The notes beneath the pieces were generated by a model. The model saw only the letters and a list, made by a program, of their open reading frames with translations, did no database searches and had not been told where the DNA came from. The translations under genes and the position numbers were made by a program. DNA of 64,000 nt, from contig JAKLKQ010000036.1 of NCBI GenBank assembly GCA_023150555.1, forward strand, positions 2,196 to 66,195, written 5' to 3'. Numbering within the stretch: the first letter of the stretch is position 1; every line of letters begins with the position of its first letter. Of this stretch, positions 9,529 to 63,217 are shown piece after piece. The DNA comes from Planctomycetota bacterium (GTDB lineage: Bacteria; Planctomycetota; SZUA-567; H5-PLA8).

Positions 9529-10188
9529 CTAGACTTCGTAGCGCATGGCCTCGGCGGGTTCGATTTTGGCCGCCAAAAGCACCGGGATGACCGCGCTGAC
9601 CAGCGAGACGCCCAGCGAAACGGCCACGCTCATCCACAGCAGGTACCACGCGTCGCCGAATCCGAAGACGCGCCACAGGTCGCCGCCCAGCTGCGCGAAG
9701 AAGAGCACCACCGTTCCGAAGACGCCCAGCAAGCCGCCGATCAGCCCGCCCAGCGCACCCAACAGCAGCATCTCGAGCAGGAACAGTTCGACGATGTGCA
9801 GCCCGCGCGCGCCCAAGCACTTCAGCGTGCCGATCTCCTTGATGCGTTCGGTGACCGAGAGCAGCACGGCGTTGGTGATGCCGGTGACGGCGATCAGCAA
9901 CGCCACGGCGATCCACCAGCGCCGGAAGCTCGCCGCGCCCGCCGCCGCCTCGTCGACGGTACCGCTCTGCTTGGCGGCCAGGACCTCGAGGCCGCCCATG
10001 ATCCGTTCGGTGCCCAGCAGCACGGCCAGGAACGCGATCGCGAAAGAGATCCCCAGAATCACAACCAGCATGCGCCCGACGCGCAGCAGCAGGGACTGCA
10101 GGCTGAACGCCAGCGCCTCGCGCAGGGGCAGCTGCGAGCGGCCGATCGTCTCGGCGGGCTTGGCGGGCGTGGAAGGTGGGGCGCTCAC
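9529..10188 (-). CDS. Small FtsX-like ABC permease
   Basis: [17 protein letters not shown] and PAEAMRYE motifs; 4 TM helices, no large periplasmic domain. Confidence 0.85.
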
Positions 10189-10973
10189 AGGCGCTCCTTC
10201 ACGCCCTCGCCGTCGAGGACGATCTCGTCGGGGCGCTCGATGCGCTCGACCTTGCCGTCGCGGATCCAGACGATGCGGCGGCTGGCCTTGATGATCTTCA
10301 GGTCGTGGGTGTTGCAGAGCATGGTCACGCCGCGCGCGCGGTTCATCTCGATCATCATCTCGATGATGTGCAGCCCGGTCTTGAGGTCCAGGTTGCCGGT
10401 GGGCTCGTCGGCGAGCACGATGGTGGGATTGCTGACGAAGGCACGGGCGATGGCCACGCGCTGCTGCTGCCCGCCGCTGAGTTCGGTGGGCTTGTGCTTA
10501 GCGCGGTCGCCCAGGCCGACGAGCTTGAGCATCTCGTAGGCGCGGTCCTCGCGCTCCTCGCGTTCGATCCCGGCGAAGATCAGCGGCAGCATCACGTTCT
10601 GCAGCGCGCTCATGATCGGAACCAGATTGAAGGTCTGGAAGATGTAGCCGATCTTGCGGCAGCGCAGCCAGGCCAGTTCGCTGGCGTCGAGCTTGCTGAT
10701 GTCGGTGCGGTCGATGTAGACGGTGCCTTCGGTGGGCTTGGTCAGGCCGCCGACGATGTTGAACAACGTGGTCTTGCCGCTGCCCGACGGCCCCATGATC
10801 GAGACGTACTCGCCCTGCTCGATGGTCAGGTCGATGCCGTCGACGGCCTTCACCACCTCGCCGCCGAGGTAGAAGTACTTCTTCGCGCCTTCCACCGCCA
10901 CACTGGACGGCGCGGCCACGCCCGTGCGGGACGAGGACGACGACGATGCGCCGGGCGCCGGGGCCTGATCCAT
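10185..10973 (-). CDS. ABC transporter ATP-binding protein (LolD/MacB-type)
   Basis: [28 protein letters not shown]; start placed at ATG 10973. Confidence 0.92.
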
Positions 10974-11150
10974 GGGGCCCGTCTCCTCCGCTTGTCCGTG
11001 CTGCCGGTTTTCGGCGGCGCCGATGCTACGCGCTGCAGCCCGGCGGAGCAAATGCCCGGCAACGGGAAAAACCGCCCTTCCGGCGCTTTCATTTATCGGG
11101 CAAGTGTACATACTGGTCGGCGCCCGAAGCCCCCACGCGGAGACGTTGCC

Positions 11151-12452
11151 ATGAAAGTGCTGGTCGTCGGCGGCGGCGGACGCGAGCACGCCCTGTGCTG
11201 GAAACTCGCGCAGTCGCCCCGCGTCAAGAAACTCTACTGTGCGCCCGGCAACGCCGGCATCGCGCTCACCCGCGGCGCGGCCTGCGGCGCCGTCGAGTGC
11301 GTCGACATTACGCAGGAGAACCTAGACGGCCTGCGCCGCTTCTCGCGCCGCGAGCGCATCGACTTGACGGTCGTCGGCCCCGAGCAGCCCCTGTGCGCCG
11401 GGCTCGTCGACCAGTGGGAAGAGGAAGGCCTGCCCGTCTTCGGACCCACCAAACGCGGCGCCGAGATGGAAGGCAGCAAGGCCTTCACCAAGATGCTTCT
11501 GCGCAAGAACGGCATTCCCACCGCCGACTTCCAGATCTTCACCGACCCCGAGAAGGCCACCGGCTACTGCCTCGAACACGGCGGGCCGTTGGTCGTCAAG
11601 GCCGACGGCCTGGCCGCCGGCAAGGGCGTGATCATGGCCAAGACCGGCGCCGAGGCCGCTGCCGCCGCGCGCAGCTGCCTGCAGGAAGGCCGCTTCGGCA
11701 GCGCCGGCGCGAAGGTGGTGATCGAAGAGACGCTGCGCGGCGAGGAGGCCAGCATCCTGGCCTTCACCGACGGGCGCACGCTGGCCGTGCTGCCCAGCGC
11801 GCAGGACCACAAGCGCCTGGGCGACGGCGACAGCGGCCCCAACACCGGCGGCATGGGCGCCTACTCCCCCGCCCCCGTGATCAGCGAGCAGATGGAAGGC
11901 CGCGTCATCCGCGAGATCCTGGTCCCCACGCTGCACGCGCTGCGCCGCGAGGACCGTCCCTTCAAGGGCGTGCTGTACGCGGGGCTGATGATCACCGAGC
12001 ACGGTCCCAAGGTGCTGGAGTACAACGTTCGCTTCGGCGACCCCGAATGCCAGTGCGTGCTCCCGCGCCTGAAGAGCGACCTGGTGGACGTCTTCGAGAA
12101 GGTCATGAGCGAGAAACTCGAGGAGGACGGCGTGGACGTCCTGCCCGACCCGGCGGTCTGCGTGGTGATGGCCAGCGGCGGCTACCCCGAGGCCTACGCC
12201 AAGGGCAAGGTCATCTCGGGCTTCAACGCCGAAGGACAGGTCGATGTGGAAGGCGTCACCGTCTTCCATGCCGGCACCGCCGCCAATGCCGACGGCAAGG
12301 TGGTGACCTCGGGCGGCCGCGTGCTGGGCATCACGGCCACGGCGGCCAGCCTGCCCGAGGCCGTGAAGCGCGCCTATGCCGGTGTGGAGCGCCTCACCTT
12401 CGAAGGCGCGCAGTACCGCAAGGACATCGCCGCGCGGGCCCTGAAGCGGTAA
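11151..12452 (+). CDS. purD: Phosphoribosylamine-glycine ligase
   Basis: MKVLVVGGGGREHAL, KADGLAAGKGV, GPNTGGMGAYSP, RFGDPE. Confidence 0.97.
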   Translation: MKVLVVGGGGREHALCWKLAQSPRVKKLYCAPGNAGIALTRGAACGAVECVDITQENLDGLRRFSRRERIDLTVVGPEQPLCAGLVDQWEEEGLPVFGPTKRGAEMEGSKAFTKMLLRKNGIPTADFQIFTDPEKATGYCLEHGGPLVVKADGLAAGKGVIMAKTGAEAAAAARSCLQEGRFGSAGAKVVIEETLRGEEASILAFTDGRTLAVLPSAQDHKRLGDGDSGPNTGGMGAYSPAPVISEQMEGRVIREILVPTLHALRREDRPFKGVLYAGLMITEHGPKVLEYNVRFGDPECQCVLPRLKSDLVDVFEKVMSEKLEEDGVDVLPDPAVCVVMASGGYPEAYAKGKVISGFNAEGQVDVEGVTVFHAGTAANADGKVVTSGGRVLGITATAASLPEAVKRAYAGVERLTFEGAQYRKDIAARALKR

Positions 12453-45198: not shown

Positions 45199-45224
45199 TC
45201 CACAATCTCCGAGGCGTACGATCC

Positions 45225-46690: not shown

Positions 46691-46721
46691 TCCGCTCGCA
46701 CCCTTGGAGTATGCTGCGCCC

Positions 46722-47900
46722 ATGACTTCCTGGGCCCGACGCTTCGACGACCGACTTGCCGGCTGGCGCGACGAAGGCCTGGCGCGCCGCCTGCGCCGGG
46801 CAGAAGGCCGCGGCGTGCATCTGCGCGTCGACGGGCGCGCGGTCGTCAGCTTCGCCTCCAACGACTACTTGGGCCTCAGCCAGCACCCCGCGGTGCTGGC
46901 CGCCGCCAAGGCCGCCGTCGACCGCGAAGGCGCCGGCGCCACCGCCAGCCGCCTGATCTGCGGCAGCCGGCCCGTACACGAGGACCTCGAGGCCGCGCTG
47001 GCCGACTTCAAGCGCGCCGAGGCGGCCCTGGTCTTCGCCAGCGGCTACCATGCCGCGCTGGCTTCCATCGGCGCGATCCTTTCCGGCATCGAAGACGCCG
47101 TGGTGATGCTCGACCGCCTCTGCCACGCGAGCCTCCTCGACGCGGCGCGATTGACCGGCGCGCGCATGCGCACCTTCAAGCACAACGACCCCGGCGACCT
47201 CAAGCGCTTGCTCGCCGCCGAAGCCGCCGAGACGAAGGAAACGACGTCCGCCGCGCGGCCGGTGTTGATCGTCGTCGAGTCGCTTTACTCGATGGATGGC
47301 GACCTCGCGCCGCTGGGACCGCTCTACGCGCTGGCCCAGGAGTTCGGCGCGCTGTTGCTGGTCGACGAGGCCCACGCCACGGGCGTGCTGGGCGAAGGCG
47401 GGCGCGGCGCGCTGGCCGACGTCTTCGCCGGGGCCCTGCCGCCGGACGTTGTGAGCCTGGGGACGCTCAGCAAAGCCCTGGGCAGCCAAGGCGGCTTCGT
47501 GTGCGCTGCGCGCGCGGTCACCGAGACGATCGTGCACGCCGGGCGCGCGTTCCTCTTCTCGACCGGCCTGGCCCCGGGATCAGCCGCCGCCGCACGGGAG
47601 GCCCTGGCGCGCATCGACGACGGCGACCGCCGCCGCCGGCTGCTAAGGCGCTGCAACGAGGTCCGTACTGCGCTGCGCATGAAAGGCCTGGAAGTGGGCG
47701 GCGGTCCGGGGCCGATCCTGCCGATACCCGTAGGCGAGGAAAAGGAGGCCGCAGCGAAGGCCGAGCGCCTGCTGGCGTCCGGTTTCTGGGTCCCGGCAGT
47801 ACGCTATCCGACGGTCAAGCGCGGGCAAGCGAGGCTGCGCCTTTCGCTGTCGGCCGAGCATACCGACGCCGACGTAAAGGCTTTGCTCGAAGCGCTTTAA
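46722..47900 (+). CDS. bioF: 8-amino-7-oxononanoate synthase
   Basis: FASNDYLGL, HASL, YSMDGD, DEAHATG, GTLSKALG, RYPTV. Confidence 0.92.
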   Translation: MTSWARRFDDRLAGWRDEGLARRLRRAEGRGVHLRVDGRAVVSFASNDYLGLSQHPAVLAAAKAAVDREGAGATASRLICGSRPVHEDLEAALADFKRAEAALVFASGYHAALASIGAILSGIEDAVVMLDRLCHASLLDAARLTGARMRTFKHNDPGDLKRLLAAEAAETKETTSAARPVLIVVESLYSMDGDLAPLGPLYALAQEFGALLLVDEAHATGVLGEGGRGALADVFAGALPPDVVSLGTLSKALGSQGGFVCAARAVTETIVHAGRAFLFSTGLAPGSAAAAREALARIDDGDRRRRLLRRCNEVRTALRMKGLEVGGGPGPILPIPVGEEKEAAAKAERLLASGFWVPAVRYPTVKRGQARLRLSLSAEHTDADVKALLEAL

Positions 47901-47954: not shown

Positions 47955-48728
47955 ATGCGAGCCATGGATTTAGCGAGACACGTCCGCTTCGCCCTGCCGG
48001 CGCTGGGCCTCGTGCTGCTTTGCACGGGCTGCGAGCGCCCCAACTGGCGCAAGCCTCCCGAACCGGTGGGCGAGCACGTCGCCATGCCGGCGTCGGATAC
48101 CTCCAAGCTCTCCGAAAGCCAGTACCTGATGCGCAAGGCCACCGTCGGCTCGCGCGCCGAACGATTGGAAGCACTGGACGTGATTGAACGCGCCGGAAAC
48201 AAGGACGAGATGCTGCCGTTTCTGCTCAAGCGCCTCGAGAAGGAAGACGACCGCTTCCTCCGCATCAAGGTCATGCACGTGCTGGCTTCGCTGCAGGACG
48301 TGCGCGCCGTCGATCCCCTGCGCGACATCGCGCGCTGGGACAACACCCGCGTGGGCATGGAAGCCGTTAAGTGCCTGTACGAACTCGGCGACGACAACTT
48401 CGTCCCCAAGCTGATCCGGATCATGCGCAACCGCGACGAGTTCCGGGAGCTCAGCGGCCTGGCCTGGCGCAGCCTGAAGTCAATCTACCAGGTCGACCTG
48501 CCGGCCAACAGCCGCGTCTGGAACAACTACTACCGCAGCCACCGCCTAACGCCCTACCAGAGCATGCGCTGGTACGAAGCCCTGCTGCCGCCCAAGCCCC
48601 CCGTCGTCGAAGGCACGCACCAGGTCGTCCCCCACCCGCGCGGCGCGCCGCAACTGCCGCAGGAAGAGACGCGCGTCCGCCGCCGCCTGCTGACCTTCTA
48701 CGAGTTCTGGAAGCCCGACGAGCCCTAG
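47955..48728 (+). CDS. HEAT-repeat lipoprotein
   Basis: Lipobox-like LCTGC; HEAT repeats; start 47955 or 47964. Confidence 0.75.
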   Translation: MRAMDLARHVRFALPALGLVLLCTGCERPNWRKPPEPVGEHVAMPASDTSKLSESQYLMRKATVGSRAERLEALDVIERAGNKDEMLPFLLKRLEKEDDRFLRIKVMHVLASLQDVRAVDPLRDIARWDNTRVGMEAVKCLYELGDDNFVPKLIRIMRNRDEFRELSGLAWRSLKSIYQVDLPANSRVWNNYYRSHRLTPYQSMRWYEALLPPKPPVVEGTHQVVPHPRGAPQLPQEETRVRRRLLTFYEFWKPDEP

Positions 48729-48989
48729 CAGCCCGTTGAAAAAGGGGCCAGGCCGCGTTGCGAGGGATTTTCGAACTGAACGAGGCCCGCGAAGCGGAGC
48801 CGTAGCTGGAAACTACGGCGACGAAGTTCAGGACGAAAAGACCCGCAACCCACTGGGCAGCCTTTTCTTGCGATCCGGCCCTGCGTTGCGCTTCGCTGCG
48901 GCGTACCTCCTAGGTACGCCTCGACTCCGCGCGCCTTGGTCCGAATCACAATCCAAGGCTGCGCGGCCGGGCCCTTTTTCAACGGGCTG
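48729..48989. mobile_element. 261-bp non-autonomous miniature inverted-repeat element (MITE) with CTAG flanks
   Basis: Perfect 18-bp TIR cagcccgttgaaaaaggg; CTAG at 48725-48728 and 48990-48993; no transposase ORF. Confidence 0.85.
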
Positions 48990-49165
48990 CTAGGCGCAGA
49001 GGCGGTGTTCAAGTGGCAATTCACACGTAGTTCATTTTCCCGTTATCTTTTGGTTCTTTTCTCAGCCTTTCTCAGCCAAAGTACAGTCGCACGTCCCGCG
49101 GCAGCGGTGTACAAAGTGAATAATTGATCTGCTTTTGCCATCTGAATAACGAGGAGATCCCGCCC

Positions 49166-52063: not shown

Positions 52064-52106
52064 TCGGGACATCCAGCCGGACATCTCTTTGCAGAGGAAA
52101 CTCACG

Positions 52107-53789
52107 ATGCGCTGGTCGCTTGATCTGAAGTCACCGCACTTGGTCGCCGGTTCCCACGGCCTTGGCCTGCCGGCGGAGAAACTCGAGGCCGTCGCCCCCA
52201 CGCTCGCGCTGGGCCCCGACACCGCCGGACGCACTGCCAAGGTCTGGATCGCCAGCGACGGCGTGCGCGCCGAAGTTGCGGTGACGGCCTGCGGCGTCGC
52301 CGGCGCTTCGCCGCGGCCCGACTTTCCCGAGTGGTACTTCCGCAACCACATCGTCGTGACCTTCAACCCCACCCACGACCACGGTACGCGCTGGATGTAC
52401 AGCGTGGACGATTCAGGCAAGGCCGAAGGCGGCTCGGTCTACACCGCACCCGGCGAGGAATCCGGCGAAGGCCCCAGCAAGACCAACGAAAAGCCGCCCG
52501 CGGCCCATGGCGAATTCCGCGCGCTTCAGGAGCACGCCTACTTCGCGCGGCTGACCCTGCCCGCCGAGGCGCTGGGCACCTCGCCCGAAGTCCCCGCGGG
52601 GCTGATGCTGAAGGTCGGATTCCACGAGGAGGTCATCGTCACCCCGCTGCAGTGGCCGCAGCCGGTGCGCTGGTCCAACGACATGCCCCTGACCTTCGGC
52701 GACGTGTACACGAAGGCCCCGGTGGTCGCCGTCGAGCGCGTCGAGTTTCCCGAGCCCGCGTGGGGAGGCGCGCCCAGCAGCGTCGTGCTGCATCTGCGCC
52801 GCGCGAAGAACGCGCCCGCTTCGGGCACCGTGCACGTCGAAGTAAACCTGCCGACCGACAGCGAGACCCGCCAGCCCGACGCGACCTGGAAGGGCGACGG
52901 AGAGACGCTGGCCGTGCGCGTGCCGGTGGTCTTCCCGCACCGCGGCAAGTGGGCCAACGGTTTTCACGACATCGCGCGCCTGCGCCTGGCGCTGCACGAT
53001 TCCGAAGAGAGACGCCAGTGGGCCGGCGAGTTTCCCTTCGGATTCGACGCCGGAGTGATCGTTCGCGAACGCTACGGGCGCCAGGGCAAGCCGCTCGCGC
53101 CGCGCCCGGACAAGAGCGACCCCGACTTCGTGAACAAGATCCGCGCCTACCTACTGTCCCGCCTGCCCGACTACCGCCCGCGCACCACGCGCGAGGGCGC
53201 GCCGTCCGACTTCTACCTCGAGGACCGCGACGGGTTGGCCCACCTGGATCTCTCGGCTGCCGACGCGCTCGACCAGGTTGCCGCGCTTTTGGCCGAACGC
53301 TTCGGCGACTGGCAGGACGCGCTGTGCGGCGCAGCGCTGTGGATGTACCACCCGCGCGTGACGCGCCATTCGGGCACCTGGTCCAGCGTCTCGGGCAAAT
53401 GCGAGGTGCGTTCGATCCCGCGCATGGGCGGATGCTTCTGCGGCGACACCACGCGCCTGGGCGCGAGCCTGGCCGAACGCATCGGGAAGAAGATGAACGT
53501 GGAACTGAAAGGTCTCTCGATGGGCCTGCGCGGGCACCTGACCACACTGGTCCGCACGCCTATCGGGCGGGTGGTCATCGACGGCATGCACGGCATGTTC
53601 TACCACGCGCTGGACAACACGCGGCTGGCGACGCTGGAGGAGCTGCGCGAGCAGCGCGAGGTCTCCGAGCGCATGTGGTACTACCCGAAGGCAGGCGGCC
53701 ACCACTTCTTCTACAAGAACTACGCTCAAGTAATCCGCCCGTGGGTGGATGGCCCCCTGGAGTGGCCCTCCGGGGAGTCGGAAACCTAG
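52107..53789 (+). CDS. Hypothetical protein with a putative transglutaminase-like C-terminal domain
   Basis: GAGGA RBS; GGCFCGD...GHL...VIDG spacing resembles a Cys-His-Asp triad. Confidence 0.6.
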   Translation: MRWSLDLKSPHLVAGSHGLGLPAEKLEAVAPTLALGPDTAGRTAKVWIASDGVRAEVAVTACGVAGASPRPDFPEWYFRNHIVVTFNPTHDHGTRWMYSVDDSGKAEGGSVYTAPGEESGEGPSKTNEKPPAAHGEFRALQEHAYFARLTLPAEALGTSPEVPAGLMLKVGFHEEVIVTPLQWPQPVRWSNDMPLTFGDVYTKAPVVAVERVEFPEPAWGGAPSSVVLHLRRAKNAPASGTVHVEVNLPTDSETRQPDATWKGDGETLAVRVPVVFPHRGKWANGFHDIARLRLALHDSEERRQWAGEFPFGFDAGVIVRERYGRQGKPLAPRPDKSDPDFVNKIRAYLLSRLPDYRPRTTREGAPSDFYLEDRDGLAHLDLSAADALDQVAALLAERFGDWQDALCGAALWMYHPRVTRHSGTWSSVSGKCEVRSIPRMGGCFCGDTTRLGASLAERIGKKMNVELKGLSMGLRGHLTTLVRTPIGRVVIDGMHGMFYHALDNTRLATLEELREQREVSERMWYYPKAGGHHFFYKNYAQVIRPWVDGPLEWPSGESET

Positions 53790-53844
53790 GCCCGGAAGCA
53801 AGTTACACGATCAGTGCGGGATTCCATAAGGGGCGCGGTCCGCC

Positions 53845-53873
53845 TTGACAGCATCCTCGTTGGTAAGTACCTT
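53845..53873 (+). promoter_or_regulatory. Sigma70 promoter
   Basis: TTGACA-17 nt-TACCTT; favours a start at 53931 or 53946 rather than 53814. Confidence 0.55.
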
Positions 53874-53930
53874 GGCAGCGCTTCCAACGCGACTTTTTCA
53901 ACCTCCCGACGTTTGGATCCGGGGCGGCGC

Positions 53931-56900
53931 ATGTCATTGACCCGCATGAACTTGAGCGCTGCATTCTGCACCGCCTGGCTGCTCCTGCCGGCGCTTGCCC
54001 TGCATGCGGCAAATGCACCCAAGCCGATCGGCGATAAGGAATGGCAGGATGGTCAGCTGTCGCCCGAAAAGATCCGCGAGCACGTCGAGCAACTCAGCAA
54101 ACTGACTTCCCGCGTCGCCGGGTACCCCGGCGCCGAACAGGCACGCGACTACATCGTGAAATGCCTTGGCGGGATGGGCTACGCCGACGGTACCCAGGAC
54201 CGCGACGAACCGGCCGAAAACGATCTTTTCAACCGCGTCGGTTCGCACCGATTCTGGGGCCTGACGCCGGTCGATAAGGGCAACGGGCGCCTCAAGTTCA
54301 CCAGCACACCGCTCTCCGACCTCCCCGCCACCCTGCCCGTCTATGCCGTCTGGCCCAACGGGGGCGCGGTCACCTCCACGGGGCCCCAGGGATTGACCGG
54401 TCCCCTGCTGTACGGCCACACGGGCAAGCCCGAAGACTTTGATGGGATGAAAGTAAGCGGCGCCATCGTGATGCTTGACCTGACCGCCCAGACCGACTGG
54501 ACCATCGCGGCGGGACTTGGCGCGCAGGCGGTGCTGCTGGTCGAACCCGCCGACGTGCGGCGTCCGGACATGGAAAACCTGTACCTGAACACGCCGGTCG
54601 AGTTCCCGCGCCTGTGGCTGCGCCGCGAGCACGGTGAAAACCTCAAGCGCGCGCTGGAAGCCAACACGCAGGCCGGGCAGCCCGCGCCGGAGGTGAATGT
54701 CTACGCGCGCATGACCTGGGAAAACAACATTTGGGAGAACCTGTACCTGCTCGTTCCGGGCAAAGACGGCCCCGGCAAGGACACGGTGATCCTGTCCGCG
54801 TATTACGACTCCAACTCCATCGTGCCGGCCTTGGCACCAGGGGCCGAACAGGCTCTCTCGTGCGCGACGCTGCTGGAGGTGGCGCGTTCGTTCAAGGCGC
54901 ATCCGCCGGAGCGCGACACGCTGCTGCTGTTCTGCGCCGGGCACTTCCAGGGCCTGAAGGGCGAACGGGAATTCTTCGCCGAGATCGAGAAACTGCCCAA
55001 GGCCGACAGCGACCAGAAACTTTATACGCTCCGCACTAAGCGCCTGATCCTACAAGACATGGCGCGCCGGTTCGCGGAAGGCGGTGAGCAAGCGCTGGCC
55101 TCGGAGGACAGCCGGGCGCGGCTGCTGGCCATGTCTGAAGAGTCGGTCAAGGAGGTGGATGCCGACGCCGACGCCAAGGCCGCAGCCTACAGCGTGGCAG
55201 AGGCCCAAAACCAGCACAAGTACTCCTGGGCAGGAATTACCTTCGGCATCCTGCTGGTCTTCTTCGGCATTTATGCTCTGCTGCGCATCCAACGCGGGCG
55301 CACGGCCATCGCGACCGTCTCCTTCTCGCTGGGCGCCATCGTGCTGCTCATGCTGGTGGGCCTGCCCATGGCCAAACAGCACCTGCGCAGCGCCGAGAAG
55401 ATCGCCGACGGCCCCCGGCGCCTGGAAGACATGCTCAACCTGATCAAGGAAGAAGTCGCCACGCAAGAGACCGCCATCGAGCGCAAGATTCGAGAAAAAC
55501 GCGGAATCCTTTTTCACAAGGACGATGACACCGCGGAAGCCGCTGCGGACGCTGGCGACGTGAAGGCGCTCGAAGAGCAGTTGCAGCAACTTCGAGACCG
55601 GCGCCTGGCCTACGAACACGCCGGCCGCCTGCTGTACATCAATTCGGCCTCCGGGCATGGCCAGCGACCGCCCGAAGACCCGCACGAACTGTGGGCGCTT
55701 ATCGCACCCGCCCTTAAGACCGCGCAGGCGCGCATCCGCAAGGAACTGGACTGGGCGGTAGCCGAGACCGACCGTCGCGAACGCAACCGTCCCTTTAAGG
55801 CGCTGATCGATGCACGGCTGCCGTCAGCAGAGAAGGCCACCGAGCGGAAGGATGACGAGAACCGTCCCAAGATCGTCTTCCTGACCCTGGATCTTTCCGC
55901 CGGCAGCCCGGCCCTTGGCGCCTTCTATTCCGGCGCGATGTACAACAAGACCATCGACGGCCCCTACAGCAATTTCGGCAAGCAGGTCTCCCAGCCGATC
56001 GCGGAGGCCGTGGAACGCAGGATGGGTGTCGAGGAACTGGGCACCCTGATCGCCAACACCATGAAGTACGGCAAGGACACCGACTACGGCGAGCGCCACA
56101 GCCGGCTTTGGTACACCTACCTGCCCACCGAACTCGCTTTGGCTGCCGAAGTCGGCGTGCAGGCGACGATCCGATCCCTCACCTTCGCCACTACCTACGA
56201 TCACCGCATGGTCTGGGACACGCCGCAGGACGACGGCGCCCCCGAACGCCTCAACTGGGCCAACGTCCGCATCCAGGCACAGATGGCGGGGCCCCTGCTG
56301 CGGCGCTACATTGGCGCCGAAAAACTTCTCGAGTCCAACCGCTTCTCCAACATCAAGAACACCGGCTTATGCCAAGTCACCTTCCACGCCGTGCGCCGGG
56401 GCGGCACGCGCAGCCTGTTCCCCAACGTACCCGTGGACCAGGCGGTCTTCTTCAAGATCAACGAACGCCGCAACGCCGCCGGCGTGCGCCTGCCGCTATC
56501 CGAAATGACCAATCCGCTGGGTAACGTGGTCATGAACGGCCTCGTCGAAGATTACCGCGTCAATATCGAGACCACCGCCTGCGATCCCGACACCGGCGAG
56601 ATCGTCGCGGCCCTGAACAAAGCCAAGCAGCGCATCGACGTCAACAACAGCTTCAGCTTCATCGGCAAGCGCATGGTCTACGAGACCGTGGAACTCTGCC
56701 GCGTCCAGGGCCTGGCCATTCTGGACGTGCTCGATCCCGGCCGCCTAGTTGTCCTGAAGAAGGTCAATCTTCTGGCCGCGCAGACCGAATCGCGCCCCCT
56801 GGAGTTCGGCAGCAGCCACCCGTACGACAGCGAACCGCACCGCGTGGTCTTCGCCGAGCCCAATTCGCGCATCAAGTGCCTCTTCAGCGAAGGCCAGTTC

Positions 56901-59846
56901 GGCGTGCGCCTGGCGCTGCTGGGCGTGCCCAGGTCGACCTTGAAGAAGCTCCTGGATCCGGCACAGGCCGGCGCTGTGGAGAAGAGTGAAGCGCGCGGGC
57001 CCGGCGTTAAACTCGGCACGCGCAAGGTCGTCGACTGGCTGCCGCTGCGCACCGCCACCGACCTGTGGAGCATCAGTGCGCAGCGACTGCTCGAGATGCA
57101 AAAGCACTCCATCGGCAACGCCAAACTCTACAACCCCGCCTACCCCGGGCCCTACTCGTCCGGAACCGTCACCGTCCAGAACGGCGATGCGACGGTGCGG
57201 GGCCAAGGCACCGCGTGGGACGAAGGCGTCGTCAACCTGCCGTTCAAGGTCCTGGGCGTACCGGGGGCCTACCGCGTCGAAGAACTGAAGGCCGATGGCA
57301 GCCTGCGCCTGGACCGCGGCTACGAAGGCCTCTCCGTGGCCGGCGCGAAGTTCGTCCTAAGCAGCGAAGAACCCGGCCTGCACAACCTCGCGCGGCAACG
57401 CCTGGAGGAAGCCCTGGCGGCGCGGGCGGCCGGCCGCGTAAGCGAGTCCTGGCGCAAGGGCATGGAAGCATGGAGCATCGAGTCGCGAGCCTTCCCTGGG
57501 GTGCTGGGCACCGCGAACGATTCGGTGATGGGCGTCGTCTTTTACCTGTTCCTGCTGTTGCCGTTCTGCTTCTTCCTCGAGCGGCTGATCCTTGCCTGCA
57601 AGAAGATCGAGCGCCAGATCGCGGCCTTCTTCGCGATGTTCACGTCGGTCTTCGCGCTGCTGTGGTTCGTGCACCCGGCCTTCAATCTGGTGGCCGCGCC
57701 GCCGATCATCCTGCTGGCCTTCATCATCATGACGCTGGCGGGCATCGTCATCGCCATCGTGTACGGAAAGTTCAACAGCGAAATGCACCTGATGCAGGCC
57801 GGCATGCAGGGCGTGCAGTCGGCGGACGTGAACCGCGCCAGCGCCGCCGTCGTCGCGGTGTCCCTGGGCATCAGCCAGATGCGGCGGCGCAAGTTCCGCA
57901 CCTTCCTCACGGCCCTCACCGTCGTCCTGCTGACCTTCACCGCGCTCAGCTTCACCAGCCTGGTGCCCAGCCTGGGGACCGCGAGCATCGACCTCTCGCC
58001 CGGCAACGAGAAGGACGCCCCCTACCAGGGCATCCTGCTGCGGCAGCTGAACTGGGACCCGATGCGCACCGAGGCGTACGACCAGTTCGAACGCGTGTTG
58101 GCCGCCGACGGCATCCGCTGCGCGCCGCGCTTCTGGTTTAACAAGTGGCCCACGCAGGACGAAAAGTCCCGCGGCCAGACACCGCGCGACCGCTACTTCG
58201 ACCTTGTGCCCGAGGACCGCGCCGGCGACCCGCTGGCCGACGCGAAGCGCGTGGTCTCGCTCCAAAGCCTGCTTGGCCTTTCGCCGCAAGAACGCCAGAT
58301 CTTTCGGACCGCGGGCAAGGATCCCATCCAGGACGCGATGGTGGCCGGCGAATGGCTCGCGGACGGCGAACGCGATGTCTGCCTGCTGCCACTGGAAGTC
58401 GTCGAAGCGCTGCAACTCGGCAAGCCCGAGGACGAGGCTTGGCGCCCCGACCACGCCATCGGCAAGCGCCTGCGGCTAGGCAGCTACACCGTCACGCTGA
58501 AAGGCATCTTCAACGCCGAGAAATTCGCCGAGATCACGGACCTCGACGGCGAACAGCTCACGCCCGTCGACTACACCAGCAGCGAATCTTCCCGCGGCGC
58601 GCAGGAGACGTCCGCCGGCGCCGCCGGCGTCGAGAACCTCAGCCCCACCACCCTGCAAAGCAACATCCACGTGATGGCCGCGCAGACGGTGATCGTGCCC
58701 TGGCAGATGGCCGCGCTCCTGGGCGGGGAACTGCGCGCGGTGGCCGCGCGCGTCGATGACCCCGCGCACCTGTCCTTCACCATCGACCGCCTGCTGAAGC
58801 TGCTCGAGAAGAATGTCTTCGTGGGCCAGGACGGCCGCCGCCGCATCTACGCGTCGACCGGAAAGACCAGCCTCGCCGGACTGGAGAACCTGATCGTACC
58901 TCTGCTGATCTCGGTATTGATCATCCTCAATACGATGATCGGCGCCGTCTACGAGCGCGAACGCGAGATCACCATCTTCAGCGCGCTGGGCCTGTCGCCC
59001 TCTCACATCTCGGCGCTGTTCCTGGCCGAGGCCTTCGTCTACGCGACGCTGGGCGCGCTACTGGGCTACCTGTTGGGCCAGGGCGTGGCGAAGTTCATCC
59101 AGGTCTGGGGCGAGCAGCTAGGCATCGGCGGCCTGTACCTCAACTACTCCTCCAGTTCGGCGGTCTTCGTCACCGCCATCGTGATGCTTTCGGTACTCGC
59201 ATCCACCATCTACCCGGCCATCCGCGCCGCGCGGGCCGCCTCGCCGTCCGAAGAGCGCAGCTGGTCGGTGCCCGCACCGGTGGGCAATGAGATCTCGCTG
59301 GAGCTGCCCTTCAGCTTTCAGCGCGACCTGGTCCCGGGCGTGGCACTGTTCCTGCACGAATTCTTCGACAACCACGCGGAGTCGACGGTCGGCAAGTTCA
59401 CCGCGCGCGAGGTGACGCTCGAGGCCTTCCACACCGACCAAGGCCAGGGCGTCTGCCTCTTCTTCCTCTCGTGGCTGTCGCCCTACGACCTGGGCGTATC
59501 GCAGGAGGCGCAGCTGTACATCGTGCCGACGGACCAGGGCCTGTACATCTCCGAGGCCTCGTTCTTCCGCATATCCGGGCACCTGGACGCCTGGCAACGC
59601 GTGAACTTGCCGTTTCTCAACGCGCTGCGCAAGCATCTGCTGATTTGGCGCACATATTCTCCCGAGCAGCGGCACGAGTACTCGCTGCGCGGGTACCTGC
59701 AGTTCCAGGAGGCCTTCGAGGCGGTCGGCTGGCCGCCGCCGGAGGGCCTCGAACCCGGCGAGCCCGACCCGGACCTGGTTCCTTCGCACGGGCCGAACGA
59801 GGGCCCCGCGGGACCGGCGACGGTGGTCGTGACCTCAACGGCATGA
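53931..59846 (+). CDS. Giant membrane protein: PA/M28-peptidase-like ectodomain + FtsX-like permease
   Basis: Signal peptide; SRVAGYPGAEQA, ILSAYYDS, APGAEQ, GHFQGL; TM bundles; NTMIGAVYEREREITIFSALGLSP FtsX motif. Confidence 0.8.
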   Translation: MSLTRMNLSAAFCTAWLLLPALALHAANAPKPIGDKEWQDGQLSPEKIREHVEQLSKLTSRVAGYPGAEQARDYIVKCLGGMGYADGTQDRDEPAENDLFNRVGSHRFWGLTPVDKGNGRLKFTSTPLSDLPATLPVYAVWPNGGAVTSTGPQGLTGPLLYGHTGKPEDFDGMKVSGAIVMLDLTAQTDWTIAAGLGAQAVLLVEPADVRRPDMENLYLNTPVEFPRLWLRREHGENLKRALEANTQAGQPAPEVNVYARMTWENNIWENLYLLVPGKDGPGKDTVILSAYYDSNSIVPALAPGAEQALSCATLLEVARSFKAHPPERDTLLLFCAGHFQGLKGEREFFAEIEKLPKADSDQKLYTLRTKRLILQDMARRFAEGGEQALASEDSRARLLAMSEESVKEVDADADAKAAAYSVAEAQNQHKYSWAGITFGILLVFFGIYALLRIQRGRTAIATVSFSLGAIVLLMLVGLPMAKQHLRSAEKIADGPRRLEDMLNLIKEEVATQETAIERKIREKRGILFHKDDDTAEAAADAGDVKALEEQLQQLRDRRLAYEHAGRLLYINSASGHGQRPPEDPHELWALIAPALKTAQARIRKELDWAVAETDRRERNRPFKALIDARLPSAEKATERKDDENRPKIVFLTLDLSAGSPALGAFYSGAMYNKTIDGPYSNFGKQVSQPIAEAVERRMGVEELGTLIANTMKYGKDTDYGERHSRLWYTYLPTELALAAEVGVQATIRSLTFATTYDHRMVWDTPQDDGAPERLNWANVRIQAQMAGPLLRRYIGAEKLLESNRFSNIKNTGLCQVTFHAVRRGGTRSLFPNVPVDQAVFFKINERRNAAGVRLPLSEMTNPLGNVVMNGLVEDYRVNIETTACDPDTGEIVAALNKAKQRIDVNNSFSFIGKRMVYETVELCRVQGLAILDVLDPGRLVVLKKVNLLAAQTESRPLEFGSSHPYDSEPHRVVFAEPNSRIKCLFSEGQFGVRLALLGVPRSTLKKLLDPAQAGAVEKSEARGPGVKLGTRKVVDWLPLRTATDLWSISAQRLLEMQKHSIGNAKLYNPAYPGPYSSGTVTVQNGDATVRGQGTAWDEGVVNLPFKVLGVPGAYRVEELKADGSLRLDRGYEGLSVAGAKFVLSSEEPGLHNLARQRLEEALAARAAGRVSESWRKGMEAWSIESRAFPGVLGTANDSVMGVVFYLFLLLPFCFFLERLILACKKIERQIAAFFAMFTSVFALLWFVHPAFNLVAAPPIILLAFIIMTLAGIVIAIVYGKFNSEMHLMQAGMQGVQSADVNRASAAVVAVSLGISQMRRRKFRTFLTALTVVLLTFTALSFTSLVPSLGTASIDLSPGNEKDAPYQGILLRQLNWDPMRTEAYDQFERVLAADGIRCAPRFWFNKWPTQDEKSRGQTPRDRYFDLVPEDRAGDPLADAKRVVSLQSLLGLSPQERQIFRTAGKDPIQDAMVAGEWLADGERDVCLLPLEVVEALQLGKPEDEAWRPDHAIGKRLRLGSYTVTLKGIFNAEKFAEITDLDGEQLTPVDYTSSESSRGAQETSAGAAGVENLSPTTLQSNIHVMAAQTVIVPWQMAALLGGELRAVAARVDDPAHLSFTIDRLLKLLEKNVFVGQDGRRRIYASTGKTSLAGLENLIVPLLISVLIILNTMIGAVYEREREITIFSALGLSPSHISALFLAEAFVYATLGALLGYLLGQGVAKFIQVWGEQLGIGGLYLNYSSSSAVFVTAIVMLSVLASTIYPAIRAARAASPSEERSWSVPAPVGNEISLELPFSFQRDLVPGVALFLHEFFDNHAESTVGKFTAREVTLEAFHTDQGQGVCLFFLSWLSPYDLGVSQEAQLYIVPTDQGLYISEASFFRISGHLDAWQRVNLPFLNALRKHLLIWRTYSPEQRHEYSLRGYLQFQEAFEAVGWPPPEGLEPGEPDPDLVPSHGPNEGPAGPATVVVTSTA

Positions 59847-59899
59847 GGGCGTTCGTAAACGGGCGGTAAGCGGTTCAGGAAAATCGGACAGGCGGAAAC

Positions 59900-61900
59900 A
59901 TGGCACGCGCAGCCGTCGACAAGGAACTCGAAGAATACCGGCGGATCATGACGCCCCCCGAGCAGTTCGAGGAGGGCTTCTCGTACCGCACGGTGCTGGG
60001 CGCGATCTTCCTCGGGTTCGTGATGATGCCGGCGTCGATGTACATGGGGCTGGTAGTCGGCCCGGCGCACATCGGCGACGCCGCGCGCTGGGTGACGGTG
60101 ATCTTGTTCCTGGAAATAGCCAAACGCAGCCGCGTCTCGCTCAAGCAGCAGGAACTGTACGTCCTCTACTACATGGCCGGTATGGCGCTGTATTCGCCCT
60201 TTGAGGGCCTGCTCTTCCGCCAGTACCTCGTCGTGTCGCCGGCAGCCACCGACCTGAACCTGATCGAACACTTCTCGCAGCCGGATATGGGTTGGGTCGC
60301 GCCCTCGAAGCAGTACATCGACGACCACGGCCGCAATTTCTTCTGCGGCGGCTGGGTCACCCCCATACTCGTCATCGGCCTGGCCACCGTCCTGCACCGC
60401 ATCGACCACTTCGGCCTCGGCTACTTCCTCTATCGCCTGACCAGCGACGTCGAGCGCCTGCCCTTCCCGCTCGCGCCCGTCGGCGCTGCCGGCGCGGTGG
60501 CGCTGGCCGAGAGCACCCAGGAGAAGCAGACCTGGCGCTGGCGCACCTTCTCCATCGGTACGATGCTGGGCCTGGCCTACGGCACGATCTACAACGCGGT
60601 GCCCGCCGTCACCGGAGCGCTGTTCGGGAAGTCGATCCAGATCGTCCCCATTCCGTTCATCGAACTCACCGACAAGACGCGCGACATCCTGCCGGCCGTC
60701 GCGACAGGCCTGACCGTCGATCTGGGGCTGATCATCCTCGGGTTCGTGCTGCCGTTCTGGAGCGTCGTGGGCGGAATCGTGGCCGTGATCGGCACGATGG
60801 TGCTCAATCCGTTCCTCTTCGAGACAGGTGTCCTGCGCACCTGGACCCACTCGATGAAAACACCCGAAACCCAGGTGGCCAATTATTTCGATTTCTACCT
60901 GAGCTGGAACATCGGAATGGCGCTGGCCATCGCGGTGATCGGCTTCTGGGGCATCGGGCGCGGGCTGATCGCGCTGCGAAAGAAAAAGCAGGAAGGCGAG
61001 GACACGTTGGACTTCTCGAAACTCTGGACGAAGAACGTCAAGCGCGGCGACATCTCGATCTGGATCAGCCTGTTCATCTACCTCTTCTCGACCTGCGCCT
61101 ACATCGCCTTCTGCGCCTGGCTGGTCCCGGGCTTCCCGGTGATCTTCTTCCTCTTTTACGGATTCATCTTCACGCCGCTGGTCAGCTACGCGACGGCGCG
61201 CCTGGAAGGCCTGGCGGGACAGGTGCTCAACATCCCGTTCGTCCGCGAGGCCGGTTTCATCCTGGCCAGCCGCTGGGGGAACTACCAGGGCCTGGGCATC
61301 TGGTTCGCACCCATCCCGATCCACAACTACGGCGTGCAGACGGTCGGCTTCCGCCAAGTCGAACTCACCGGCACCAACTTGCGCAGCATCATCAAGACCG
61401 AGTTCACCGTATTGCCCGTGATCCTTATCGCGAGCGTGCTCTTCAGCCAGTTCATCTGGGGGTTGGCGGCAATCCCCTCGGAGGCCTACCCCTACGCAAA
61501 CCTGCTGTGGGACATGCGTGCCCGCCAGGAGCTGCTGCTGTTCAGCTCCACGACCGGCGGCGAATCCCAATTCTACGACGCCATCAACTCGGCCTACATC
61601 GCTACCGGCTTCGGCGTGGGCATGGTAATCTACATCGTTCTGGCGATCTTCAGCCTGCCCACCCTGTTCATATACGGCGTGGTACGCGGCTTCGGCCATG
61701 CCAATCCGCACGGGCTGATCTTCGAGATGTTCGGGGCGATGCTCGGCCGCTTTTACTTCGAACGCCGCTTCGGGCGCGACAAGTGGCGCCAATACGCGCC
61801 GGTCCTCATGGCAGGCTACTTCTGCGGTGTGGGGCTGATCAGCGCGGCAAGCATCGCCGTCAGCATGATCTCGAAATCCGTCTCGCAACTCATGTATTGA
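59900..61900 (+). CDS. OPT-superfamily-like peptide transporter
   Basis: Many TM helices; EEGFSYRTVLGAIF, QQELY, ERLPFPLAPVGA. Confidence 0.7.
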   Translation: MARAAVDKELEEYRRIMTPPEQFEEGFSYRTVLGAIFLGFVMMPASMYMGLVVGPAHIGDAARWVTVILFLEIAKRSRVSLKQQELYVLYYMAGMALYSPFEGLLFRQYLVVSPAATDLNLIEHFSQPDMGWVAPSKQYIDDHGRNFFCGGWVTPILVIGLATVLHRIDHFGLGYFLYRLTSDVERLPFPLAPVGAAGAVALAESTQEKQTWRWRTFSIGTMLGLAYGTIYNAVPAVTGALFGKSIQIVPIPFIELTDKTRDILPAVATGLTVDLGLIILGFVLPFWSVVGGIVAVIGTMVLNPFLFETGVLRTWTHSMKTPETQVANYFDFYLSWNIGMALAIAVIGFWGIGRGLIALRKKKQEGEDTLDFSKLWTKNVKRGDISIWISLFIYLFSTCAYIAFCAWLVPGFPVIFFLFYGFIFTPLVSYATARLEGLAGQVLNIPFVREAGFILASRWGNYQGLGIWFAPIPIHNYGVQTVGFRQVELTGTNLRSIIKTEFTVLPVILIASVLFSQFIWGLAAIPSEAYPYANLLWDMRARQELLLFSSTTGGESQFYDAINSAYIATGFGVGMVIYIVLAIFSLPTLFIYGVVRGFGHANPHGLIFEMFGAMLGRFYFERRFGRDKWRQYAPVLMAGYFCGVGLISAASIAVSMISKSVSQLMY

Positions 61901-61973
61901 GCATGCCGCGTCGCCTTGCGTCCCGCTCCGCGGCGGTTATCGTGGGGCACGGAGGGAGCAAGGGAGCGCGCCG

Positions 61974-62732
61974 ATGAGCGACCAGCCGTACTTCGACGTC
62001 GAATCCAAGAGCCGCAGCCTGGAATCCGCCACGCCCCAGGAGATCATGGCCTGGGCGCTGGAGTTCTTCGGGACCAGCGGCAAGCTCTGCATGCTCACCT
62101 CCTTCCAGCTCGGCGGCATGGCGCTGCTGGACATCCTCGGCAAGCTCGAGAAGGACGTTCCCCAGGACAAGCGGTTGCCGGTGCTGTTCATCGACACCGG
62201 GTTCCACTTTCCCGAGACCCTTGCTTTCCGGGACGAGGTCGTAGCGCGCTACGGCCTGAACCTGCGCAACCTCACGCCCATTGTCGACCGCGAACTCTTC
62301 AAGGCCATTTACGGCGACGACCAGCTCTACTACCGCAATCCGCAGGAATGCTGCCGCGTCAACAAGGTCGCTCCGCGCGAGATGGCCCTGAAAGGCTTCA
62401 ACGCGGAGATCTCGGCGCTGCGCCGGGACTCGTCGCCCGAACGCGCCAACATCCAGATCCTTTCGCGGCGCACGGACGGTTCGTTCCAGATTCATCCACT
62501 GGCCAACTGGACGCGCGCGCAGGCCATGCAGTACCTGAAGGACAACGACGTCCCGATCCACCCCCTGCACGCCAAGGGGTACAAGACCATCGGGTGCTTT
62601 CCCACCTGCTGCACGATCCCCGTGGGCGAGCACGCCCCCGAACGCGCCGGCCGCTGGACGGGTACGGGCAAGACCGAGTGCGGCTTGCATCTGGTGGGAC
62701 AGAAGCAGGATACCAACGACTTCGCGATCTAA
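61974..62732 (+). CDS. cysH: APS/PAPS reductase (Fe-S-containing APS-reductase type)
   Basis: DTGFHFPET, CCRVNKV, GYKTIGC..CC, RAGRW, ECGLH. Confidence 0.92.
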   Translation: MSDQPYFDVESKSRSLESATPQEIMAWALEFFGTSGKLCMLTSFQLGGMALLDILGKLEKDVPQDKRLPVLFIDTGFHFPETLAFRDEVVARYGLNLRNLTPIVDRELFKAIYGDDQLYYRNPQECCRVNKVAPREMALKGFNAEISALRRDSSPERANIQILSRRTDGSFQIHPLANWTRAQAMQYLKDNDVPIHPLHAKGYKTIGCFPTCCTIPVGEHAPERAGRWTGTGKTECGLHLVGQKQDTNDFAI

Positions 62733-62814
62733 CCTTCAGGCAGAATAAATGACCACGGCCGGCCGGAAGAATCCGGCCGGCGGGAGTCTGCGAGAAGATG
62801 GCGAAAAAAGGGGG

Positions 62815-62985
62815 TCAGAGACCGCGGACGATGCTGCGCAGCTGTTCGCGCAGCGCTTCGCGAATCATCCGGTCCAGCACCCGCTTCTGTTCTGGGGTGA
62901 AGATTGGCTTCCGCCCGCGTTTGGACTTGCCGCCGGCGGCGGCCTTTCCAGCTTTGCGGCCACGGCGTTTGCGTCCACGGGGCAT
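62815..62985 (-). CDS. 56-aa highly basic protein
   Basis: GAGGAG RBS 7 nt before ATG 62985; MPRGRKRRGRKAGKAAAGGKSKRGRKPIFTPEQKRVLDRMIREALREQLRSIVRGL. Confidence 0.7.
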   Translation of the reverse strand: MPRGRKRRGRKAGKAAAGGKSKRGRKPIFTPEQKRVLDRMIREALREQLRSIVRGL

Positions 62986-63217
62986 CTTCGATTCTCCTCG
63001 GCTCAGGGTTGCAGTCGGACTGTCCCTTCTACTGCAATTAGACCCCTTGTAAAGGTAAGAATTTCGCACGGCTGCCGTAGGCATTAGAGCGGAAGAAGAC
63101 GCGGGTTTCGGGCAATGGACAAGGCGTCTCTGGCATTCACAGGTCCGCCAAAGGCGAAATTAAAGGCGATTCGAGACAGCGCTTTTTGTTTTGATTCAGA
63201 CGCCAGAAAGGAAATCC

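Follow-up and report, generated by a model that had tools for sequence, protein, structure and literature searches.

The locus described here raises the question of what a giant membrane protein, in which a peptidase-like head is joined to an ABC permease module, does directly ahead of a protein with the fold of an oligopeptide transporter (OPT). Both genes lie in a 64,000-nucleotide stretch of a Planctomycetota bacterium (GenBank assembly GCA_023150555.1, contig JAKLKQ010000036.1, positions 2,196 to 66,195 of the forward strand), hereafter the window. The giant, a pseudo-M28/FtsX protein of 1,971 aa, is encoded at 53931..59846 (+), and the second gene, at 59900..61900 (+), encodes an OPT-like protein of 666 aa. 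The two are very probably components of a conserved ABC-OPT membrane system. The window holds a dispersed planctomycete version of this system, with lineage-specific insertions in the giant, and by kind it is a type VII ABC system to which an OPT-fold carrier is coupled.

The open reading frame of the giant spans 53814-59846 (+) and would yield 2,010 aa if translation began at the GTG at 53814, an alternative start. With the ATG at 53931, from which all residue numbers are counted here, the protein has 1,971 aa and begins MSLTRMNLSAAFCTAWLLLPALALHAANA. Residues 1-28 (53931..54014, +) look like a signal peptide on direct reading and by hydropathy, and nine hydropathic transmembrane (TM) segments follow. 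The GC content of the window is ~65%, and GC at third codon positions (GC3) sets real genes apart; the giant has a GC3 of 0.86 and the 666-aa gene one of 0.89, against 0.62 for an overlapping antisense open reading frame. The TGA of the giant ends at 59846 and the ATG of the 666-aa gene is at 59900, leaving a gap of 53 nt. Pfam matches and homologues (308 with E <= 0.001 among 7,999 candidates scored) also support the giant gene, while NCBIfam matches to LolC, FtsX and ADOP were all sub-threshold. The domain layout was drawn from hydropathy, from a family alignment of 23 giants (A1, in which the protein of the window is P0003) and from an AlphaFold2 (AF2) model of residues 1190-1971 with a predicted local distance difference test score (pLDDT) of 79.2. 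All features of the giant given below are on the forward strand. The topology is self-consistent, both large extramembrane parts ahead of the last TM helices falling on the periplasmic side, and the MacB-like core is preceded by ~1,150 periplasmic residues with a PA/M28-like domain at their head. A first-pass annotation, made from the sequence alone, had described a chain of ~1,970 aa with a signal-peptide-like start, an M28-like ectodomain, TM bundles, a MacB-like loop, an FtsX motif and a C-terminal domain; the reading frame, Pfam, profile searches and the model bear this description out.

The head of the giant comprises a PA domain and an M28-like domain, at residues 29-390 and about 641-790. 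The PA domain and the first half of the M28-like domain (54015..55100) were recognised by profile matches to 2ek8 and YwaD. They include AYYDS (residues 290-294; 54798-54812) and GHFQG (residues 337-341; 54939-54953), both located by motif search, and APGAEQ (residues 302-307), read by eye in the translation; a second PGAEQ copy at residues 66-70 is unrelated to the M28 motif. The second half (55851..56300; LTLDLS, TTYDHR, VWDTPQD) was placed by A1 and by its profile, a weak second stretch of which aligns to HTPND of 2ek8. Pfam Peptidase_M28 (PF04389) gives a partial match (E value 7.8e-6; 26.2 bits against a cut-off of 21.3) over profile positions 5-79 of 193. A sequence search of the PDB with the N-terminal 790 residues alone returned nothing, and the A1 profile was needed. 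Its top matches are the PA-domain M28 aminopeptidases 2ek8 (E value 1.8e-21) and YwaD (E value 5.5e-19), after which it reaches MacB, entries of the Aeromonas aminopeptidase (AAP), nicalin (E value 1.4e-7), transferrin receptor (E value 2.7e-7) and nicastrin (E value 0.005).

The metal ligands of AAP, which we take to be His97, Asp117, Glu152, Asp179 and His256 with Glu151 as the general base, were transferred to the giant through the alignment with 2anp. His97 falls on Tyr291, Glu152 on Phe339 and His256 (of HTPxD) on Asp763, and the position of Glu151 is taken by His338. The stretch around Asp117 is one residue shorter in the giant (PGAE-Q), with Glu306 or Gln307 at this place; Asp179 corresponds to Asp654, and Asp99 is kept as Asp293. 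Ligand columns were counted over all giants that the surveyed loci yielded, 112 aligned or 92 for the C-terminal columns. The His97 position holds His in 3/112 sequences, Tyr in 67 and Phe in 39; Glu at the Glu152 position is found in 0/112; the His256 position holds His in 0/92, Asp in 65 and Gly in 27. The canonical co-catalytic zinc-ligand set of M28 is thus absent from the giant, and judging from these columns three of the five canonical metal ligands are gone family-wide. From these counts the degenerate motifs AYYDS, GAEQ and GHFQG, to which the first-pass annotation had drawn attention, are a trait of the family. Asp at the Asp99 position is retained in 110 of the 112 sequences, the Glu151 position is His in 105/112, and Asp757 and Arg759 are kept in 92/92 and 91/92, respectively. 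The family appears to keep a polar constellation of its own, and this fits a binding pocket.

The two halves of the M28-like domain are split by a lineage-specific insertion (55101..55850), recognised from A1 and hydropathy, which consists of a charged helix-rich stretch and a TM hairpin (residues 433-478; 55227-55364). Among the 23 sequences of A1 the hairpin insertion occurs only in P0003 and its closest relatives, P0006 and P0009. Other insertions are seen elsewhere in the family: LysM repeats interrupt the PA domain of a Poribacteria homologue of 2,376 aa (P0101, in A1), and discoidin (F5/8 type C) domains are present in the homologues P0033 and P0069. The head is followed by a conserved periplasmic middle region with a helical stalk (56301..57500, from A1), which holds a ~75-aa insertion (about residues 1073-1146) common in A1 only to the closest relatives. 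The middle region has no Pfam match, and an Atlas search with residues 780-1190 gave no usable match.

The remainder of the giant is, as modelled, a type VII (MacB/FtsX) ABC permease half preceded by a family-specific bundle of three TM helices. This bundle (57501..57806; model helices 2-31, 37-58 and 68-103) was defined from hydropathy, the model and the invariant columns PF..ERL and HPAF. The permease module itself (57834..59240) includes an elbow helix, FtsX TM1, a periplasmic core and FtsX TM2-4. Pfam FtsX (PF02687) matches near the C-terminus with an E value of 1.2e-14 (54.8 bits; cut-off 25.5). The core of ~300 residues between TM1 and TM2 (57966-58880) is MacB-like: the TM1-TM2 loop (model residues 167-450) aligns in VIA-align with the MacB periplasmic domain 3ftj_A at Z 13.8 and a root-mean-square deviation of 3.3 over 180 aligned residues, and it also resembles domains of YknZ, LolE and LolC. 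PF12704 is a precomputed match on many members of the giant family. With the whole C-part model, VIA-align returned HrtB (Z 15.5), YtrF (14.7) and MacB 5nik_J (14.1), followed by FtsX (Z 11-13.6), with LolC/E, YbbP and BceB within Z 10-13.6. The protein ends in a conserved cytoplasmic alpha/beta domain of ~145 residues (59289..59723), outlined by the model and by the invariant columns WLxPYDLGVSQ and LRKxxLIWRT, and then in a disordered tail. The fold matches of this domain (KA1, AMPK C-terminal, Aha1, START-like; Z 7-7.8) are too weak to assign a family.

The 666-aa protein had been called OPT-like in the first-pass annotation, and this assignment holds. It has no match in Pfam or NCBIfam, and a PDB sequence search with the protein or its family profile (A2) returned nothing. 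Only 1 of 15 aligned family members passes the Pfam OPT model (PF03169), at an E value of 2.7e-5, and PF03169 is precomputed on 1 of the 120 homologues listed. The same genome, however, encodes a PF03169-positive paralogue on contig C96 (62.5 bits), and hhalign joins A2 to this paralogue over 612 columns (probability 100%, E value 9e-49); tblastn gives an E value of 1e-36. The AF2 model (pLDDT 79.1; predicted template modelling score 0.81) matches barley Yellow Stripe 1 (HvYS1, 7wsr_A) in VIA-align at Z 21.3 over 547/600 residues, the next match being at Z 6.0. Foldseek with the same model also matched YS1 (E value 9e-11, probability 1.00, TM-score 0.60-0.67) and gave only two matches with E <= 0.001. 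Because of the homology to the paralogue and the fold match to YS1, we place the protein in the OPT superfamily yet outside the Pfam model, in a family termed here OPT-B.

Homologues of the OPT-like protein number more than 3,400. The metagenome relatives that were fetched are 52-56% identical to the planctomycete protein, records from Halodesulfovibrio and Desulfobulbaceae are among the homologues listed at the same level, the homologues listed include cultured sulfate reducers (Halodesulfovibrio, Desulfatibacillum), and some source records carry the name 'peptide transporter' or 'OPT family'. DUF6785/DUF6784 (PF20581, PF20580) do not match the 666-aa protein, nor was its hhalign comparison with a DUF6785 protein significant; an Atlas feature search lists DUF6785 clusters at 0.89-0.90, which we treat only as a lead. 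In four planctomycete genomes (G031, G120, G139, G097) the match to the OPT-like profile is broken near position 545 by several hundred nt while remaining in one open frame of 722-1,087 aa, and this in-frame interruption suggests a large inserted domain. A search for longer proteins with the OPT-like query, which is weak evidence on this point, found no giant-OPT or OPT-FtsX fusion. A complex prediction of the OPT-like protein with residues 1190-1345 of the giant, covering its three additional TM helices, the elbow and FtsX TM1, was run without controls; its scores of 0.34, 0.25 and 0.19 against a mark of 0.32 speak neither for binding nor against it.

The association of the two genes was examined from both sides. 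For the giant, 575 relatives were confirmed with one genome per species and 79 loci were kept, from Planctomycetota, Armatimonadota, Latescibacterota, Omnitrophota, Poribacteria, Desantisbacteria and Nitrospirota, as well as WS1, Fervidibacterota, Gemmatimonadota and a Vermiphilus sp. metagenome-assembled genome (MAG). An OPT-like gene lies beside the giant in 43 of the 62 loci with at least 2.5 kb of downstream flank: in 41 it follows in the same orientation within 2.5 kb (in 40 of these no more than 800 nt away), in one it overlaps the end of the giant, and in one it lies upstream. Where the downstream flank is shorter, the start of an OPT-like gene is visible in 10/17 loci. For the OPT side, the OPT-like profile was used to fetch 80 metagenome loci. 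Thirty of these extend 9 kb or more upstream, and in 29 of the 30 a giant lies upstream in the same orientation. ATPases at least 50% identical to one encoded in the window accompany 26 of these 30 loci, and a small FtsX protein without a periplasmic domain (mini-FtsX) likewise 26. On the giant side the ATPase is in the operon at 15/30 wide loci. In metagenome loci the giant and the OPT-like gene are usually 2.2 kb apart, and the space is taken up by a DUF6785/DUF6784 membrane protein (470 bits in L084), the second OPT-like partner of many operons. The order is mini-FtsX, ATPase, giant, DUF6785, OPT-like in L084 and L109; giant, OPT-like, mini-FtsX, ATPase in L036; and mini-FtsX, ATPase, giant, OPT-like in L049. 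Gene order therefore varies around a constant giant-OPT core. The first-pass annotation had suggested a neighbourhood check for four kinds of genes, and for three of them, the OPT-like gene, an ATPase (here of a system-specific clade) and the mini-FtsX, the outcome is positive, as they recur beside giants across many phyla; a small PqqD-like protein recurs as well.

Further operon mates were collected over 159 loci. The most frequent is a family of 245-412 aa without known match (23 loci). PqqD-like (RRE-type) proteins occur in 15/159 loci, the four that were scanned matching PF05402 at E values of 1e-8 to 1e-12, and a secreted protein of 200-237 aa also occurs in 15. Small TPR proteins (8 loci), polysaccharide-deacetylase-like genes (5 loci) and GT28-like genes (4 loci) are rarer, and a SPOR-domain gene follows the ATPase in L027. 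Small open reading frames among the mates are not conserved and no conserved precursor peptide was found, save for a two-TM protein of 65-77 aa in four loci; it lies just upstream of the giant in L025, L036, L044 and L079 and has no counterpart in the window. None of the recurring mate families in the 159 loci matched a known modifying enzyme. In the surveyed operons we saw no membrane-fusion (adaptor), outer-membrane-channel or TolC-like genes, and no peptidoglycan hydrolase, LolA-like or adaptor gene was conserved.

In the window a candidate motor is found in an ABC ATPase at 10185..11189 (-; Pfam ABC_tran E value 1.4e-36), which probably begins at a later start codon than the first one. Its Walker A, signature, Walker B and H-loop motifs are intact, it is 50-64% identical to cluster-linked ATPases, and the level of at least 50% is reached in 29/79 giant loci. 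The gene overlaps by 4 nt that of a 219-aa mini-FtsX at 9529..10188 (-; Pfam FtsX E value 6.5e-16), with four TM segments and no periplasmic domain, which is a candidate second permease half and has full-length matches of 30-41% to cluster-linked mini-FtsX proteins. The two form a two-gene unit, and the gene that diverges from it is presumably purD-like, as read from its translation. In a quick tree of 70 rows, a system-specific clade of 61 (SH-aLRT support 99) unites all 58 cluster-linked ATPases with that of the window, on a long branch, and with two on contig C111; nine other ABC ATPases of the genome fall outside this clade.

The other parts of the system are scattered over this genome, which amounts to 6.6 Mb in 183 contigs. 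The two ATPases on C111 are tandem genes (L080: 6356-8091, +). They are 69-71% and 64-67% identical to cluster-linked ATPases, compared with 60-61% for that of the window, and they group on the tree with the metagenome type. In the contig they are preceded by genes for a TPR protein, a zinc-ribbon/SQHop-cyclase-like protein and an S26 signal peptidase, with GNAT genes after them. A 467-aa FtsX is encoded on contig C141. A firm pairing of the ATPase and mini-FtsX of the window with the giant was dropped, as neither the tree nor the identities separate the candidates. Contig C96 (L082: 6007-15694, -) holds a second, divergent giant-OPT system, 26-36% identical to the pair of the window, in the order DUF6785/DUF6784 protein (809 aa), giant with MacB_PCD and FtsX, Pfam-positive OPT (659 aa) and a 1,313-aa NHL/DUF5107 protein. 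On contig C99 a 528-aa protein (L163: 3000-4586, -) is a fusion of the 245-412-aa operon-mate family with a PqqD domain, which lends Rosetta-stone support to the view that the two work together; the same contig has a solitary DUF6785/DUF6784 gene (L164: 5478-7997, +; 391.6 bits) beside histidine biosynthesis genes. The adjacency of giant and OPT-like gene is the one link kept in this lineage while other parts are scattered. A scan of 48700-63200 for promoters and terminators was at chance level, with 1 promoter-like and 12 terminator-like sites where 1.5 and 11.2, respectively, were expected. Contigs from four runs labelled as metatranscriptomes, from two samples, contain short exact pieces of the giant and of a 979-aa gene upstream of it. 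Pieces of the OPT gene were found only in two runs flagged 'probably DNA', and none of those listed bridges the giant-OPT junction. DNA carry-over could be the source of all these pieces, and they are not used as evidence.

Two large genes of 979 aa and 598 aa (49124-53789, +) lie directly upstream of the giant. The 979-aa protein has weak DNRLRE and GH123_N matches, and the 598-aa protein has no family. Both were rejected as parts of the system: across the 79 giant loci no homologue of the 598-aa gene occurs, and matches to the 979-aa gene are confined to weak ones in two loci (27-28% identity over ~170-180 aa), in another position, and for this reason they are probably outside it. Elsewhere in the window, 289-4118 (-) encodes a 676-aa multihaem cytochrome-like protein (c554, c3 and MtrC-type matches) and then a 600-aa protein without family, and 14193-17738 (+) encodes a Ser/Thr protein kinase of 1,181 aa with TPR repeats and a C-terminal FGE-sulfatase (formylglycine-generating enzyme-like) domain. 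The genes at 42895-47900 (+) match a beta-ketoacyl synthase, radical SAM with BATS, a short-chain dehydrogenase and a class I/II aminotransferase, with a HEAT-repeat protein next; we read this run as FabF, biotin synthase, SDR and BioF-like, i.e., a fatty-acid/biotin block.

Comparison with known systems indicates where this one may belong. As in LolCDE, an FtsX-fold permease carries a periplasmic domain between TM1 and TM2 (LolC 7arh_C, Z 12.2), and two unlike permease halves with a separate ATPase would be expected. In contrast to LolCDE, one half is here a giant of 1,971 aa that also carries a pseudo-peptidase head, three additional TM helices and a cytoplasmic domain at its C-terminus, while the other lacks a periplasmic domain; no LolA-like partner was seen, and an OPT-fold gene is linked. 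The periplasmic core is shared with MacB (A1 profile match to 5lil, E value 1.7e-12), although the ATPase is not fused here, the complex would be heteromeric rather than homodimeric, and no adaptor or TolC-like genes were seen in the surveyed operons. With FtsEX-EnvC and FtsEX-PcsB the system shares an ATP-driven FtsX module that would control a periplasmic domain without a substrate crossing the membrane; the head is a different one, and there is no coiled-coil activator or amidase partner. The OPT-like partner is present in 23/151 genomes sampled in the phylum, and this patchy distribution makes the giant-OPT system ill-suited to a core division role. YbbAP-TesA, as presented in PMC12646458, combines a type VII permease (YbbP 9ge6_A, Z 11.9) with a hydrolase-fold periplasmic unit that receives the presented substrate; here the hydrolase-fold unit is fused in cis, is an M28 domain without the catalytic metal ligands, and is joined by an OPT-fold carrier.

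The 666-aa protein shares with the OPT/YSL carriers (PF03169; 7wsr/7wst) a near-full-length fold and homology to a PF03169 member, but it is only ~11-12% identical to YS1, is below the Pfam threshold and is encoded with an ABC machine, whereas known OPT/YSL carriers are described as acting alone. The head of the giant resembles nicastrin, nicalin and the transferrin receptor in being a membrane-tethered PA/M28-type ectodomain without zinc ligands, and by this analogy a receptor role is inferred for it. It differs in that its closest sequence relatives are the active PA-aminopeptidases 2ek8 and YwaD, and in being fused to an ABC permease. A functional analogy without homology is offered by the TRAP and TTT systems, in which an extracytoplasmic receptor delivers to a secondary carrier; their receptors are passive, soluble and of another fold, and the giant would be an ATP-driven, membrane-integral receptor.

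We propose that the job of the system is the capture and uptake of a peptide-like substrate, a proposal to which we give somewhat less than an even chance. It is in keeping with the architecture of the giant, the loss of the metal ligands, the OPT identity of the second protein, the conserved linkage, the dedicated ATPase clade and the PqqD-like operon mates. Type VII ABC systems work on periplasmic partners through mechanotransmission (PMC12646458), and characterised OPT/YSL members are proton-coupled importers (PMC9691689). In the manner of LolC and LolE, the giant and a mini-FtsX would pair asymmetrically as permease halves on a dimer of the ATPase, and ATP binding and hydrolysis would move the periplasmic head. 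The pseudo-peptidase pocket would serve as the receptor for a peptide-like ligand, likeliest an oligopeptide or a peptide-bearing envelope fragment, which would then be released to the adjacent proton-coupled OPT-fold carrier and so reach the cytoplasm, where PqqD-like (RRE-type) adaptors could receive it. A more specific version, which we regard as a tentative minority view, is a hybrid primary/secondary machine in which the ATP-driven mechanotransducer docks onto, loads or gates the OPT carrier. ATP would pay for capture and release outside the membrane and the proton gradient for translocation, with RRE-like adaptors taking the peptide inside. We know of no described transporter class of this kind. 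Full-text literature searches, which did not cover subscription-only papers, found no description of such a system, in agreement with the first-pass annotation, whose author knew of no characterised example.

Several observations weigh against uptake as proposed. To our knowledge, none of the type VII ABC systems brings a substrate into the cell or acts together with a secondary carrier. An OPT-like gene is not adjacent in 19/62 giant loci. These OPT-less loci cluster in a tree built from the C-parts of 77 giants, for which 76 of the 79 loci supplied an unbroken piece, with 5 label changes against a shuffled mean of 16.5 and 0/500 shuffles as low; they are mainly one Armatimonadota and one Latescibacterota-like paralogue clade, and giants can therefore exist without an OPT gene next door. 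The clade of the giant of the window itself has an OPT-like gene in 7/7 rows. The first-pass annotation implied a nearby ATPase, and one of the system-specific clade is indeed in the window; its two-gene unit with the mini-FtsX is, however, 43 kb upstream of the giant and not adjacent. With the ATPases on C111, which are closer to the cluster-linked ones, and an FtsX on C141, the true ATPase and FtsX partners of the giant are uncertain, and the ATPase of the window may not be one of them. PqqD-like adaptors are best known from peptide maturation, which points to an endogenous peptide as much as to a nutrient. The conserved His/Asp/Arg constellation of the head could be an altered catalytic or metal site and not a passive receptor, and the LysM or discoidin inserts, found in 3 of the 120 giant homologues listed, hint that the head contacts glycan or the cell wall.

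The last of these points also serves an envelope-housekeeping role, which we consider unlikely: as in LolCDE or YbbAP-TesA, the two FtsX proteins would pull out or shift a molecule attached to the membrane or the wall (peptidoglycan stem peptides, lipopeptides, lipoprotein remnants), with the head holding its peptide part and the OPT-fold protein recycling the released fragment. According to PMC12646458 all characterised type VII systems act on envelope components from the periplasm, and the inserts, the SPOR gene of L027 and the few polysaccharide-deacetylase-like and GT28-like genes would suit such a role. These accessory hints are rare, however (3 of 120 listed proteins and a handful of the 159 loci), and the conserved operon mates include no peptidoglycan hydrolase, LolA-like or adaptor gene. 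The PqqD-like mates and the 245-412-aa family, at 15 and 23 of the 159 loci and fused on C99, could point to export or maturation of an endogenous peptide, in which a cytoplasmic PqqD-like RRE adaptor would hand over a ribosomal peptide for export by the OPT-fold protein, and the periplasmic head and FtsX would process or expel it. MacB-type systems do expel substrates from the periplasm. This role nevertheless seems distinctly improbable in view of the surveyed operons, which show neither a conserved precursor gene, nor a recognisable modifying-enzyme family, nor a membrane-fusion or outer-membrane-channel gene; the head, moreover, lacks the catalytic set, and characterised OPT/YSL members import, as stated in PMC9691689.

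There is also a slim chance that the head is a re-tooled enzyme, in which His at the Glu151 position and the conserved Asp, Glu and Tyr residues bind another metal or act without one; it would trim captured polypeptides to oligopeptides for import by the OPT protein, a role compatible with uptake. The replacement residues are conserved (His at the Glu151 position, Asp757 and Arg759, as counted above), and 2anp, the AAP entry ranked highest by the family profile, itself has His at position 151; this AAP mutant reportedly retains some activity. The near-complete loss of the positions of His97 (kept in 3/112), Glu152 (0/112) and His256 (0/92) argues otherwise, and relatives that are not catalytic (nicalin, transferrin receptor and nicastrin) are among the matches of the profile as well. 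Finally, the giant and the OPT-like gene might be neighbours by descent only and work independently. The 19 loci without an adjacent OPT-like gene and the single OPT-side locus of 30 without a giant are in keeping with this idea, which is nonetheless very hard to credit: the adjacency extends across Planctomycetota, Armatimonadota, Latescibacterota, Omnitrophota, Poribacteria, Desantisbacteria, Nitrospirota, the Vermiphilus sp. MAG and diverse metagenome contigs, with an order that varies around the core; in this genome the pair has stayed 53 nt apart with its other parts scattered; and the divergent giant on C96 is again trailed by an OPT gene.

The type VII ABC systems that are understood form a handful (MacAB-TolC, LolCDE, FtsEX, YbbAP-TesA, HrtBA and BceAB), each representing a new use of mechanotransmission. 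The system of the giant and the OPT-like protein, with relatives in at least 10 phylum-level groups, would extend this list by one that is linked to a secondary-carrier fold and equipped with a pseudo-enzyme head of its own. It would also give a first functional context for the large and highly conserved OPT-like family and for DUF6785/DUF6784. If the proposed peptide uptake is true, it bears on the feeding of uncultivated bacteria of sludge, sediment and sponges.

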